Source: a virus (lineage: Duplodnaviria; Heunggongvirae; Uroviricota; Caudoviricetes). From it: DNA of 5,204 nt. The stretch is taken from the IMG/VR virus record IMGVR_UViG_2548876958_000011. One strand, given 5' to 3'. Below, in pieces: positions 201-5,176 of the stretch; the first letter of the stretch is position 1; each line of letters opens with the position of its first letter. Below the pieces are notes generated by a model. The model was given only the letters and a program-made list of their open reading frames with translations. It made no database searches and was not told the DNA's origin. The translations under genes and the position numbers were made by a program.

Positions 201-776
201 TTAAGGATTCATTAAGCAATGTCGCAACCACCAATAAATCCGCTTAAGAACATGAAAATTGATTACTGGTATAAAGCGCTTACAGTTGTTGGCGCTGCGT
301 TGTTTGTCTTTAATGGAACGTCTTTTTTTGACAGATATCCCGTTGTTCCATTGGGTTTTTTGTCCTCCGGCATCTTTTTTATTGGTTTGGGGGAGTGGAT
401 TAATCACCCTCTCAAAGTGAGATTTATTGGCCCTGGAGTTTGGACTCGTGGATATAATCGTTCTTCGTGCGCACTCGGTATCATCTTCGACATACTTGGT
501 TGTTTCCTGATTGTTACAGGAGTCGTCAAGTTCTTCTGATGTAAAACCGCAAATGGGGCACGTAACGGGAATTTTGAAAAGCGTTTCTCCGGGTTCCAGA
601 ACAAAATTTTCTGCGGTCTGATTTTGCTTCTCATATTTGTGCTCCGCGTCATTGTGAGAGCACATTCTTATTCTGAGTGCCTGTTTAAACTCACTGAAGC
701 TGAGAGCTTCTTCGCCTTCGGCAAGGCCTTCGAAGTATTCTTCGTAAGCCTTTTCCATGATTGTGTCGAAATCCAT
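201..776 (-). CDS. Acidic hypothetical protein, 191 aa as read to the first stop; C-terminal extent uncertain
   Basis: ATG at 776-774 preceded by AGGTGA with 5-nt spacing, 1 nt after the TGA of the upstream 51-aa ORF. N-terminal ~80 aa acidic and protein-like (MDFDTIMEKAYEEYFEGLAEGEE...). The distal ~110 aa is K/R/N/S-rich low complexity and is the codon-aligned antisense of the 219-539 membrane ORF, so it may be a shadow. Confidence 0.4.
   Translation of the reverse strand: MDFDTIMEKAYEEYFEGLAEGEEALSFSEFKQALRIRMCSHNDAEHKYEKQNQTAENFVLEPGETLFKIPVTCPICGFTSEELDDSCNNQETTKYVEDDTECARRTIISTSPNSRANKSHFERVINPLPQTNKKDAGGQKTQWNNGISVKKRRSIKDKQRSANNCKRFIPVINFHVLKRIYWWLRHCLMNP
219..539 (+). CDS. Small predicted membrane protein, 106 aa, about three hydrophobic segments; possible superinfection-exclusion-type function
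   Basis: ATG at 219 preceded by AAGGA (202-206); in-frame TAA at 213-215 prevents upstream extension. Hydrophobic stretches ALTVVGAALFVF, LGFLSSGIFFIGLGEWI and ALGIIFDILGCFLIVTGVV. Opposite orientation to neighbours, as for sieB in Rac-type prophages (synteny recall only). Fully overlapped antisense by the 201-776 ORF. Confidence 0.5.
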   Translation: MSQPPINPLKNMKIDYWYKALTVVGAALFVFNGTSFFDRYPVVPLGFLSSGIFFIGLGEWINHPLKVRFIGPGVWTRGYNRSSCALGIIFDILGCFLIVTGVVKFF

Positions 777-777
777 A

Positions 778-933
778 TCACTCACCTGAGTTTCTTTCCA
801 GCCAGCGACGGGCACCATTTTCGGTTTTAAACGTTTTGCTTTTGGTATACGTCATCGCGGTGAACGTGCCGTCCTGGTTGGGGAACACGCCACATACCAG
901 AGATTCGCTGTTGCCAAGATCGATAGTATCCAT
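778..933 (-). CDS. Small hypothetical protein, 51 aa, first gene of the leftward operon
   Basis: ATG at 933-931 preceded by AAGGGGAAATGAGG; stop TGA at 780-778. Protein MDTIDLGNSESLVCGVFPNQDGTFTAMTYTKSKTFKTENGARRWLERNSGE. Sits where the tiny ydaF/ydaG-type genes lie in Rac-type prophages (from memory, not verified). Confidence 0.5.
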   Translation of the reverse strand: MDTIDLGNSESLVCGVFPNQDGTFTAMTYTKSKTFKTENGARRWLERNSGE

Positions 934-1589: not shown

Positions 1590-1817
1590 ATGCTTAAAGT
1601 TGACGCAATTACTTTTTTTGGCAGCAAAACAAAGCTTGCCAATGCCGCAGGAGTGAGACTGGCAAGTGTTGCTGCTTGGGGGATACTGGTTCCTGAAGGT
1701 CGCGCGATGCGTCTACAGGAGGCATCTGGCGGGGAGCTTCTGTATGATCCCAAGGTTTATGACGAATATCGTAAGACGAAGCGGGCGGGGCGGTTGAACA
1801 ATGAAAATCACTCCTGA
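1590..1817 (+). CDS. Cro-like small DNA-binding protein (DicC/YdaS-like), 75 aa
   Basis: ATG at 1590 with AGAGGGGG 5 nt upstream; the track's start at 1587 is TTG one codon earlier. Segment FGSKTKLANAAGVRLASVAAW is HTH-like. Divergent from the repressor across the operator region. Resemblance to DicC is from memory. Confidence 0.75.
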   Translation: MLKVDAITFFGSKTKLANAAGVRLASVAAWGILVPEGRAMRLQEASGGELLYDPKVYDEYRKTKRAGRLNNENHS

Positions 1818-3928: not shown

Positions 3929-5176
3929 TTAAGTCTGAGCCTCACTCTCTTGGCCATAAGTGGCTTGCCAGTATCTCGCCGTAGGGTTCATTAGAATGTG
4001 CAATACAAGCCACCATGCAAAAATGCAGGGAGGTTGATTGTAGTAACCGGCAGGCACATATCCGTGAGCTAGTTGATTTCGTAAATCACCATAGATTTTA
4101 TCTACCAGTAAGGCCTGAAGATTGCCAATTATGTCTACGCCGAAAGCTTCAATAATCAGTGGATTATCTAGTAATCCCTTGAGTCCATTTCGCTCTTGCG
4201 AACCGTCCCCGTGAAGCTGCGATGGTTCCTCACCTTTAATTTTAGCCACATATCTCAGACTATTTTCGATCTGGGGAATCAACACGTGGCATGCCGTCAT
4301 AAAATCTCCATTGAAACCGCAAACCATACCCTTGATGAAAAACTCTTCATGCCCAAACGGGATGAAGGGATGATTGATGAACATATCGCGAAAAAACGCC
4401 TCCGAGATTGGATATTTCATTGTGATCTCATCTGTAGCAGGAATAATTTGCCCAGCTACTGCCAACTCATGGTCGATACGCATTCTCGTCATCATTATGG
4501 GCCAAATAACTGCCCCATTTGCATCATCAATCCCCAATCCTGCGGGTATGCGAGCAAGTGTCATTCCCTCATGATCAATATGTGTTGATCCAAACATCCA
4601 AGCTATGCTGTTGGCCTTTTGTTCTATTGCTTGAGCCTTAAGTCTCTCAATGCTGGTTGGCCGACAGACCAGCATCGCAAGTCTGAAAACCATATCAAAC
4701 AAATCTCTTCCGACTACCCGACTCTTGGCTTGATGGACAATCTCACTAATATCTTGAGGGGGAGACTGAAGGATAGACATCTGGTGACGGGATTCGATTT
4801 GGTAATCACGCATTTCTTCATACAGCGCAAGACGTTCTATTCGGGTTCCTGGAATATTAGCCAGTGCTTCAATAGCATTCTGCATGCAGGCTGCCGAAAT
4901 CATACCGCCATCTTGGAATTTTGACTCTTCCAGATGTGTATCGGCAAGAAGCCGCCAGAATTCAAACTGTGTATCTCTGTCACAGCACCTATTCGCAATC
5001 GGGATTGCGGTTTTACAGGCATCGACGGCAAATGAAAATAATTTTTGAGCCAGATAGTTTTTTGTCAGAAACAGGAGTTCCTGGGCAATAAAAGATGGCT
5101 CACTCACTTTACAGTCGATATCGAGTTGCAGGAGTCGCAGCGGATAAGGTGGATTTGCCCCTATATTTCCAGACAC
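3929..5176 (-). CDS. Hypothetical 415-aa protein with C-terminal HEPN-like R-x4-H-x-Y signature; candidate abortive-infection / defence protein
   Basis: Long ORF convergent with the phage early operon. Motif DLRNQLAHGY at residues 364-373 (nt 4058-4081). Duplicated IDHE motifs (HIDHEGM, RIDHELA) mid-protein. GTG start at 5176 with weak SD, so the N-terminus is uncertain. Stop TAA 3931-3929. Confidence 0.7.
   Translation of the reverse strand: MSGNIGANPPYPLRLLQLDIDCKVSEPSFIAQELLFLTKNYLAQKLFSFAVDACKTAIPIANRCCDRDTQFEFWRLLADTHLEESKFQDGGMISAACMQNAIEALANIPGTRIERLALYEEMRDYQIESRHQMSILQSPPQDISEIVHQAKSRVVGRDLFDMVFRLAMLVCRPTSIERLKAQAIEQKANSIAWMFGSTHIDHEGMTLARIPAGLGIDDANGAVIWPIMMTRMRIDHELAVAGQIIPATDEITMKYPISEAFFRDMFINHPFIPFGHEEFFIKGMVCGFNGDFMTACHVLIPQIENSLRYVAKIKGEEPSQLHGDGSQERNGLKGLLDNPLIIEAFGVDIIGNLQALLVDKIYGDLRNQLAHGYVPAGYYNQPPCIFAWWLVLHILMNPTARYWQATYGQESEAQT

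Follow-up and report, generated by a model that had tools for sequence, protein, structure and literature searches.

Well-supported antisense overlapping genes are very few in bacteria and phages, and they are contested; most of them rest on expression data for young open reading frames (ORFs). The closest published case is the Pseudomonas phage Fc02, in which ner and gene 10 of the lytic strand lie antisense to olg1 and olg2, upstream of the repressor gene (PMC9936078). Strand-specific RNA-seq and assays with cloned genes showed that both strands are used, the RNA-seq assigning each of them to a different phase of the life cycle; superinfecting phages are excluded by Olg1 and also by Gp10, which is found in the insoluble fraction (PMC9936078). 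Two further reports describe evolutionarily novel antisense ORFs with translation evidence, supported mainly by expression data: olg1/olg2 of P. aeruginosa, described as under purifying selection (PMC8850804), and the antisense overlapping genes of enterohaemorrhagic Escherichia coli (EHEC; PMC9927249). Here, a stretch of 5,204 nucleotides (nt) from a tailed virus (Caudoviricetes; IMG/VR record IMGVR_UViG_2548876958_000011) was analysed, and is referred to at its full length as the window. It contains a small membrane-protein gene, M, on the plus strand, and a longer ORF on the minus strand that runs antisense across the whole of M. The part of this minus-strand ORF that is shared with other phages is termed X (Table 1). 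The analysis supports an overlapping pair in a qualified form: both ORFs are maintained, and only one of them is constrained in sequence over the shared bases.

The M/X pair resembles the Fc02 locus in several respects. Both loci consist of antisense-overlapping ORFs in the region where a temperate phage switches between lysis and lysogeny; one partner follows a cro- or ner-like gene on the lytic strand, and the other lies on the repressor's strand and is expressed (presumably, in the case of M) in the lysogen; and one partner is an insoluble or membrane-type protein. However, the insoluble protein is encoded by the lytic strand in Fc02, whereas the membrane protein is encoded here by the strand opposed to the operon. 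The Fc02 olg1 and olg2 are reported to use the 0 and +1 frames (PMC9936078). M and X are exactly aligned and have comparative evidence across the Proteobacteria. The tblastn searches with M and X retrieved only phages HannyBb, mEp390, and Bcep176, and no similarity to Fc02 was detected. As an analogy, a locus of the same topology with both strands expressed would support the translation of X proposed below. The P. aeruginosa and EHEC overlaps also consist of a long ORF antisense to an annotated or conserved gene, argued from conservation and stop depletion. M/X differs from them in that doubt attaches to the partner that is annotated, in the age and mobility of the pair, in an absolute depletion of stops, and in an overlap without amino-acid constraint.

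Lambdoid phages provide other points of comparison. The sieB gene, known from Rac, lambda, and P22, is a gene of the early-left region for superinfection exclusion or abortive infection. In Rac-type prophages it occupies the slot that M has in Qin-type ones, between the DUF1391/ydaG-ydfB genes and the kil/dicB genes, and is likewise opposed to the early-left operon. SieB is a membrane-associated protein expressed from the prophage. However, Rac sieB is not homologous to M (no sequence or profile similarity of M to the SieB family in Pfam, PHROG, NCBIfam, or PADLOC), and it has no partner ORF, its aligned antisense frame containing 7 stops; an open antisense frame as a general property of the slot was rejected on this ground. 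In the phages with the order cro-X-cII, M runs leftward from the cII position through anti-cro toward the repressor gene, a functional analogy to lambda PRE/anti-cro. In lambda, however, neither the PRE/anti-cro nor the OOP/cII antisense RNA codes for protein in the overlap. The Qin operon dicBF (ydfA-ydfB-ydfC-dicF-dicB), which is under repressor control (PMC10448788), shares with the window the first 34 residues of YdfB, the upstream ydfA, the dicB-type promoter region, and a DicA-like repressor. It differs in that the ydfB C-terminus and all of ydfC are replaced in the window by a 517-bp cassette with M and X. No description of M, X, or their overlap was found in the literature.

The codon boundaries of M and of the minus-strand ORF both lie at coordinates 0 mod 3, so that the two are codon-aligned; position 3 of the M codons faces position 1 of the X codons, and position 2 faces position 2. 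Across M, the aligned antisense frame has 0 stops, and the other two antisense frames have 2 and 10. The aligned frame is open only if M lacks TTA, CTA, and TCA. For the window alone, the probability of this is 0.001 by M's own third-position usage and 0.016 by the usage of neighbouring genes; it is 0.07 by approximate genome-wide codon figures of E. coli. The openness in the window alone is thus unusual and not decisive. The comparative evidence is decisive.

A neighbour-joining tree was reconstructed from 29 M lineages with mutual amino-acid identity below 80%, all of which were retrieved with M alone and are thus unbiased as to the minus frame. Two scans of viral contigs gave almost only near-identical E. 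coli copies, which were used for population counts and not for diversity. The expected number of stops in the aligned antisense frame was calculated from each gene's own use of A at third positions. In clade B (17 lineages), observed and expected stops are roughly equal (17/14.8, 5/5.9, 9/9.7, 7/6.9, and 11/8.8), with outliers in both directions (12/4.7 and 6/12.6); because these counts are broadly near expectation, the null model is supported. In clade A, 10 of the 12 lineages have no aligned antisense stop, against 3.1-5.9 expected in each, and the probability of zero stops ranges from 3e-4 to 3e-2 per lineage. The window's own lineage was left out of the combined probability to guard against ascertainment bias; the combined value is 4e-23, or 6e-12 in a conservative version with five deep groups. 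The same 10 lineages keep both ORFs, always in the same register, with further lineages coming from Salmonella, Citrobacter, and mEp390. The frame is stop-free in a Yersinia lineage (51% M identity) and in a third enterobacterial lineage (58%), where it runs upstream into an ORF with the motif F-x-I-P-x-x-C-P-I-C-G-F. It is likewise stop-free and extended upstream in Pantoea, Roseateles, and several metagenomic lineages.

The codon choice in M points in the same direction. The codons TTA, CTA, and TCA, which create antisense stops, make up 0 of 178 Leu and Ser(TCN) codons in clade A and 121 of 336 in clade B (Fisher's test, 4e-27). The Leu columns of clade A vary among CTT, CTC, CTG, and TTG, of which CTT (49), CTC (39), and TTG (38) are preferred and CTG is the least used (15). 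A general bias against A-ending or rare codons was rejected, since A-ending codons are at a normal level in clade A (15-29%) in the four-fold families that are unable to create antisense stops. Selection against stops in the second frame beyond compositional expectation was therefore found in clade A. A chance shadow would have homologue stops that follow the null and an ORF that is not conserved; the null fits clade B and not clade A, and the reading of X as a shadow frame was rejected for the family.

M itself is, by its pattern of substitution, a real and conserved gene under strong purifying selection. The ratio of non-synonymous to synonymous substitution rates (dN/dS) is 0.03-0.23 in the Salmonella/Citrobacter set, and substitutions between E. 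coli-type copies cluster at codon position 3 (e.g. 11/7/36 at the three positions). The single-nucleotide polymorphisms (SNPs) of M in 196 near-identical E. coli loci comprise 19 synonymous, 19 non-synonymous, and 0 nonsense changes, against a neutral expectation of 23/73/4%. Protein searches identified about 60 relatives of 100-112 amino acids (aa) with 34-58% identity, from Yersinia, Herminiimonas, Reinekea, and many metagenomes. Further homologues came from scans of genomes and metagenomes, in Pantoea, Roseateles, Pseudomonas, Shewanella, Arcobacter, Burkholderia phage Bcep176 (gp33), and others. Residues W17, Y18, K19, A20, G56, G58, E59, W60, N62, H63, and P64 are invariant, and form the motifs WYKA and G-x-GEW-x-NHP. 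The hydrophobic segments lie at about residues 17-37, 41-58, and 82-106. The AlphaFold model (mean predicted local distance difference test score, pLDDT, of 88) has helices at 17-32, 42-62, and 85-105 and a β hairpin at 66-78. M has the features that define the Bcep176 gp33-like family (100-112 aa, three hydrophobic helices, and the motifs [DN]-[YA]-W-Y-K and G-x-G-E-W-[IV]-N-H-P), and on this sequence evidence it belongs to an unnamed, Proteobacteria-wide family of three-helix membrane proteins. An AAGGA at 203-207 lies 11 nt upstream of the M start, a rather long spacing for a ribosome-binding site. M has no match in Pfam, PHROGs, NCBIfam, or PADLOC, and its model has no match with E < 0.8 in a Foldseek search of the PDB. 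A partner gene or another functional clue was sought beside the clade-B M genes, and only unrelated domains of unknown function (DUFs) were found.

Several observations concern the wider M family. Three clade-B copies of M (L021, L022, and L023) lie far apart on one chromosome, a metagenome-assembled genome (MAG) of Arcobacter sp., with an identical match to the query (38% over residues 7-98), which suggests carriage on a repeated mobile element. Distant homologues of M are present in Desulfocapsaceae/Desulfobulbaceae MAGs (L033-L038). In four of these (L033, L034, L036, and L038), the M homologue is followed downstream by a small gene of its own that is convergent with it, does not overlap it, and has a CPSCG motif (...EEFDATCPSCGMFHLTR...); this gene may share ancestry with what was originally the N-terminal part of X. 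In GenBank, mEp390 gp39, which is an X (L292), is noted as similar to Bcep176 gp33 (L293), yet gp33 lies on the M strand and has the M motifs; its start is annotated about 40 codons too far upstream. The note looks like a cross-strand confusion in annotation.

X has two parts with different constraints. The N-terminal region of about 40 residues outside the overlap has a dN/dS of 0.10-0.15 for deep pairs, and its pattern of substitution indicates that it evolves as a protein. The motif G-E-x-x-[FC]-x-I-P-x-x-C-P-[IV]-C-G-F is kept in E. coli, Yersinia, and the third enterobacterial lineage, with third-position changes of the minus frame being synonymous. It aligns without gaps to L..L..LER[KQ][FY]PGSV.ID..TG.V[ST]L.GW of the Salmonella, Citrobacter, Pantoea, and metagenome lineages. 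A zinc ribbon was considered for the CPxCG motif and rejected as a family assignment: the motif has a single CxxC knuckle, which the [FY]PGSV-type lineages do not conserve, and the Pfam similarities are below threshold. X has the features of its own family (mEp390 gp39-like; phrog_35040), namely a P-G...G-[FWH] motif leading up to the overlap, the aligned antisense of M, and a length of 148-164 aa. Annotated proteins homologous to X exist in Salmonella, Citrobacter, Pantoea, and phage mEp390 (gp39). In nine lineages, X starts 32-47 codons before the overlap, giving products of 148-164 aa, and six of the nine starts have a Shine-Dalgarno match. The stop lies 5-12 codons past the M start in most open-frame lineages, and 5 codons past it in the window. 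In some E. coli prophages (L122, at 1192-2031 on the minus strand, P0067, and P0069), X starts at the start position of ydfA, with the same ribosome-binding site, and has no stop after the M start; it continues in frame into a YdfC-like protein to form an X-YdfC fusion ORF of 245-272 aa. Searches of Pfam, PHROGs, NCBIfam, and PADLOC with X gave no match, save for the PHROG that is the ORF itself and the N-terminus of YdfB.

The tail of X, by comparison, appears free in its sequence. The X-frame dN/dS inside the overlap is 0.6-2, against 0.03-0.23 for M; purifying selection on both amino-acid sequences over the same bases was thus not seen. The third-position entropy at conserved M residues is 1.31 bits in clade A and 1.41 bits in clade B, and the X residues that face invariant M residues vary (e.g. 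R/G/W opposite Pro64). The comparative data indicate that the absence of stop codons is the only detectable constraint in the tail, with other synonymous choices free. The AlphaFold model of X has a mean pLDDT of 47, and its only confident helix covers residues 137-152 (the last ~16 residues). This helix faces the conserved N-terminus of M, and it is therefore not demonstrably constrained in its own right. As a separate observation, column 15 of M, the Tyr of D-Y-W-Y-K (264-266 in the window), is TAC in all 10 Tyr-bearing clade-A lineages (10 of 11) and is read as Val in X; it is mostly TAT in clade B, which gives Ile in the antisense frame. It is the only conserved M residue with an apparently fixed synonymous site in clade A. 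The initial annotation, made from the window alone, had described a membrane-protein ORF in phase with an antisense ORF whose overlapping half has a composition expected of a shadow frame. The membrane-protein gene is confirmed by its homologues, its dN/dS, and its model; the shared codon boundaries and the distal stop of the minus-strand ORF hold; and the composition is indeed imposed by the hydrophobic gene opposite, with a dN/dS of about 1 and no amino-acid constraint of its own.

The genomic context of the cassette differs among lineages. In Salmonella, Citrobacter, metagenome prophages, and mEp390, X occupies the second position in the early-right operon, with its start 1-36 nt after cro; the next gene (cII-like, KilA-N, or O-like) follows 2-5 nt on or overlaps it; M is antisense inside X, on the repressor's strand. 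In E. coli, Yersinia, and related prophages, the cassette is located in the early-left operon, downstream of the repressor, and the gene order in the window is ydfA-ydfB'::X-(dicF-dicB). The orientation of M in prophages is always opposed to the repressor-controlled early operon, and X runs with the operon. The clade-B M genes are co-directional with their neighbours and have no opposite-strand operon. The same is true of the clade-A lineages that have lost the frame, L256 (3 stops) and L264 (7 stops). Since the lineages without the frame have no opposite-strand operon, the open frame accompanies an operon that reads M from the other side.

In the window, the minus-strand ORF is a chimera. A blastn comparison of the window with E. 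coli K-12 (NC_000913.3) aligned at 676-1047 and 1-158, with nothing between; the cassette stands in place of the ydfB C-terminus, ydfC, and about 120 nt of K-12 Qin. The identity to YdfB covers residues 1-34 only, against the full 42-aa K-12 protein. On the alignment, the minus-strand ORF is a recombinant fusion, in which a mosaic junction at ~675/676 joins the ydfB codons in frame to X. Compared with the family, X in the window has 37 extra residues, which are the 34 ydfB codons plus R-I-R. The ATG at 665 is the probable native start of the minus-strand ORF of the cassette. Because the Shine-Dalgarno before it is poor in the window, translation more likely enters from the ydfB start, judging from the sequence; this start is preceded directly by GGTGAG, and the ydfA stop (TGA 780-778) is located 1 nt ahead of it, the two being translationally coupled. 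The ORF is likewise open from an ATG at 818 (205 aa), and phage HannyBb annotates this 205-aa version, which is phrog_35040. In two RefSeq records, the NCBI annotation pipeline (PGAP) calls the ORF a ydfB pseudogene without C-terminus (675-776); in a third, it is a 191-aa hypothetical protein (WP_000344958.1; 201-776). M is without annotation in the three RefSeq E. coli records inspected (L001, L201, and L202). The first 79 residues of the ORF have a net charge of -9, and the part overlapping M has +9, with an abundance of N, K, R, and S.

Of the 5426 complete E. coli genomes, 806 (about 15%) carry the cassette, and it is at least 99% identical in 785 of the 806. Strains 55989 and ATCC 25922 carry it with 99.7-99.9% identity. 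Both ORFs are kept in 187 of 196 E. coli loci; one frameshift breaks both, and no locus has a broken M with an intact X. In L119, a nonsense codon lies inside the CPVC-G-F motif. Selection on the openness of X appears to be relaxed in the largely cryptic E. coli prophages. The initial annotation had offered a short acidic protein with an artefactual tail, a genuine overlapping pair, or a degraded gene, and each describes part of the locus. The acidic part is indeed separate (YdfB residues 1-34, with the junction at ~675), and the tail is not an artefact but a conserved phage ORF. About 10 independent lineages have kept the frame open, and it travels with M and possesses starts and a conserved N-terminal motif of its own, as expected of a genuine pair; two amino-acid sequences constrained over the same bases were not found. 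Degradation fits E. coli, where the minus frame gains nonsense changes at the neutral rate. Conservation among homologues fits a single frame as regards the amino-acid sequence, and does not do so as regards stop-codon avoidance.

The window as a whole represents the immunity region of an E. coli lambdoid prophage of the Qin/Rac type, with 100% identity to strain DEC9B. Judging from its gene content, the minus strand is a repressor-controlled dicBF-type early-left operon. Positions 1-158 resemble the K-12 Qin spacer between ydfC and dicF (86.5% identity), and dicF itself should lie ~60 nt past the left edge of the window. On the plus strand, PGAP calls cro, ydaT, an O-like gene, and DUF977; it leaves 1-675 without annotation. 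The DUF4209 gene at the right end is probably another prophage accessory gene, and a 61-aa minus-strand ORF at 11-196, which has no family match, is probably not a gene. A scan of 1-1200 found a single weak terminator-like hairpin on the plus strand at 716-735, with shuffled controls yielding equal numbers of matches. It is the only such hairpin on this strand downstream of M, lies inside the ydfB-derived codons, and could be the end of the M transcript. In another carrier, L202 (NZ_CP180600.1), a RelE/ParE-family toxin gene with a small partner is inserted between ydfA and the repressor gene (2208-2680).

Table 1. Position of the M/X cassette and of the surrounding features in the window.
Feature	Position	Strand	Basis
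M, membrane protein gene, 106 aa	219-539 (ATG 219, TGA 537-539)	+	ORF, homologues, AlphaFold
Chimeric ydfB'::X ORF, 191 aa	776-201 (ATG 776, TAA 203-201)	-	ORF; PGAP; phrog_35040
ydfB first 34 codons (acidic N-terminus)	675-776	-	identical to K-12 YdfB residues 1-34; phrog_2061; PGAP ydfB call
X proper, 154 aa from internal ATG	665-204	-	length match to X of other lineages
X N-terminal motif P-G-E-T-L-F-K-I-P-V-T-C-P-I-C-G-F, ending two codons before the overlap	543-593	-	
X tail, codon-aligned antisense of M, stop-free, sequence free	204-539	-	
M/X cassette, 517 bp	159-675	both	blastn against NC_000913.3
ydfA (DUF1391), first gene of the dicB-type early-left operon holding X	778-933	-	Pfam PF07151, E = 2e-27; PGAP
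DicA-like repressor gene, helix-turn-helix protein, 135 aa	1102-1509	-	PGAP annotation; comparison with K-12 Qin
Divergent cro/dicC-like gene	1590-1817	+	PGAP annotation; comparison with K-12 Qin
DUF4209-domain protein gene, 415 aa, convergent with the replication genes, at the right end	3929-5176	-	

It is likely that M is a lysogen-expressed accessory gene in a mobile two-strand cassette, and that X is translated across M; the passage of ribosomes or the C-terminus of X, rather than the sequence of the tail, is probably under selection. The cassette would be carried by temperate phages of the Proteobacteria. One strand would encode M, a small inner-membrane protein made in the lysogen, for which, by inference from sequence and position, a role in superinfection exclusion or abortive infection would be most plausible. 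The other strand would encode X, an ORF of ~150-165 aa in the early operon, with a short conserved N-terminal domain followed by the codon-by-codon antisense of the whole M gene. As the constraint on the tail is stop avoidance only, ribosomes would have to read X to its end; and because stop codons are recognised in translation alone, it is simplest to assume that X is translated in full wherever the cassette is functional. The most likely reason would be that translation is carried across the embedded antisense gene, keeping the early operon coupled. This would spare the operon Rho-dependent polarity, RNA-polymerase stalling, and pairing of sense and antisense RNA, and it would also deliver the C-terminal helix of X. 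The tight packing of cro, X, and the next gene and the free tail sequence favour the passage; the conservation of the N-terminus at the protein level and the conserved product length favour the C-terminal helix or the length of the tail. In the window, X has been fused by recombination to the 34 ydfB codons in a Qin-like cryptic prophage, where selection for openness seems to be relaxed.

Several observations weigh against this proposal. In the window, the minus-strand ORF is a recombinant fusion and the Shine-Dalgarno of its probable native start is poor; an Rfam scan of the whole window gave no match, and a promoter scan of 1-1200 gave no sigma-70-like site. Three observations speak against the passage of ribosomes as a general requirement. 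Two zero-stop lineages (L010 and L275) have no upstream start. In the early-left enterobacterial contexts, about 280-490 nt after X are without a called gene, so that the coverage by translation is incomplete. The stops opposite Rac sieB, in the same slot and orientation, indicate that an antisense accessory gene is tolerable without a bridging ORF. In 8 of the 196 E. coli loci, X is cut by a nonsense change whose effect on M is a conservative missense. The X-frame SNPs (10 synonymous, 26 non-synonymous, and 2 stop; n=38) are close to the neutral expectation of 20/75/4.4%, and this number of SNPs has low power to detect selection. Finally, the conservation of the X N-terminus at the protein level points to a product that itself matters, and not to the passage of ribosomes alone.

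Among the alternatives, the one that concerns the window most directly is that its minus-strand ORF is a decaying relic, the fusion being a recombination scar in a defective Qin-like prophage in which X has lost any role and only M, ydfA, and dicF/dicB are maintained. The in-frame junction with ydfB, the weak Shine-Dalgarno at X's own start, the neutral X-frame polymorphism including stops, the loci in which X is truncated with M intact (8 of 196, and none in the reverse), and the nonsense codon of L119 all fit a relic. The near-identity of the cassette in 785 of 806 carriers, the 187 loci that keep both ORFs, the low power of 38 SNPs, and the presence of the same fusion in the active phage HannyBb do not; a relic is possible, though doubtful. 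It is rather unlikely that X is a conventional protein, with an N-terminal domain, a disordered linker of free sequence, and an essential C-terminal amphipathic helix, in which stops are barred by the loss of the C-terminus and not by a need for ribosomes to pass. Such a protein may act on M or on the lysis-lysogeny decision, and it would agree with the N-terminal dN/dS of about 0.1, the length held at 148-164 aa, the C-terminal helix as the only confident structural element, and the location between cro and cII, which is where regulators sit; each of the two antisense partners in Fc02 likewise has an exclusion phenotype at the protein level. However, the helix lies opposite the N-terminus of M (N-P-L...DYWYK), so that M alone explains its conservation, and the linker composition varies (K/R/N-rich at low G+C, G/A/E-rich in Roseateles). 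The AlphaFold model of X is poor overall, and X has no family match.

M could instead be a toxic membrane protein, with the minus transcript acting mainly as a cis-antisense RNA that counteracts or switches it, as in type I toxin-antitoxin systems, and the translation of X would only stabilise or time the minus-strand RNA. The transcripts of the two strands would be complementary throughout, M is a small hydrophobic protein, and its orientation is always opposed to the repressor-controlled operon; but M, at 100-112 aa, exceeds typical type I toxins in size and by far in conservation, and the clade-B copies exist without an opposite-strand partner, which makes this improbable. It would be a long shot that the X tail, as the exact complement of M and hydrophilic where M is hydrophobic, binds or titrates M or the M mRNA upon induction, as a protein-level switch or antidote pair for which a single DNA segment codes on its two strands; if true, M/X would lend itself to testing the long-standing notion of sense/antisense peptide complementarity. 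It would be more moderate to regard X as a class of 'bridging ORFs', which would carry ribosomes across an antisense accessory gene and whose product sequence would be irrelevant. Scarcely tenable is a pure shadow ORF, in which only M is functional and the minus frame is open by chance and misannotated by gene callers. The aligned antisense frame is the least stop-prone one, the X tail is free of amino-acid constraint and disordered by prediction, nonsense changes of X accumulate neutrally in E. coli, and the PGAP annotation is inconsistent. However, the null that fits most clade-B lineages predicts 3-6 stops where 10 of 12 clade-A lineages have none (P 6e-12 to 4e-23), stop-generating codons are 0 of 178, and upstream of the overlap the frame always leads into the conserved N-terminal motif, which is under purifying selection and has a start codon, accompanied in 6 of 9 lineages by a Shine-Dalgarno match.

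In summary, the M/X pair has a profile opposite to that of most reported antisense overlaps: deep comparative evidence from multiple lineages for a complete aligned antisense frame that has long been held open, with a free amino-acid sequence. It separates selection on being translated from selection on what is translated, which are usually conflated. Silent changes in M can place stops in X of a cultivable lambdoid phage, and would thus allow a genetically clean test. A conserved membrane gene in about 15% of complete E. coli genomes is unannotated in the RefSeq records inspected, where the questionable strand is the annotated one. The position of M in these prophages suggests an undescribed defence or exclusion function.

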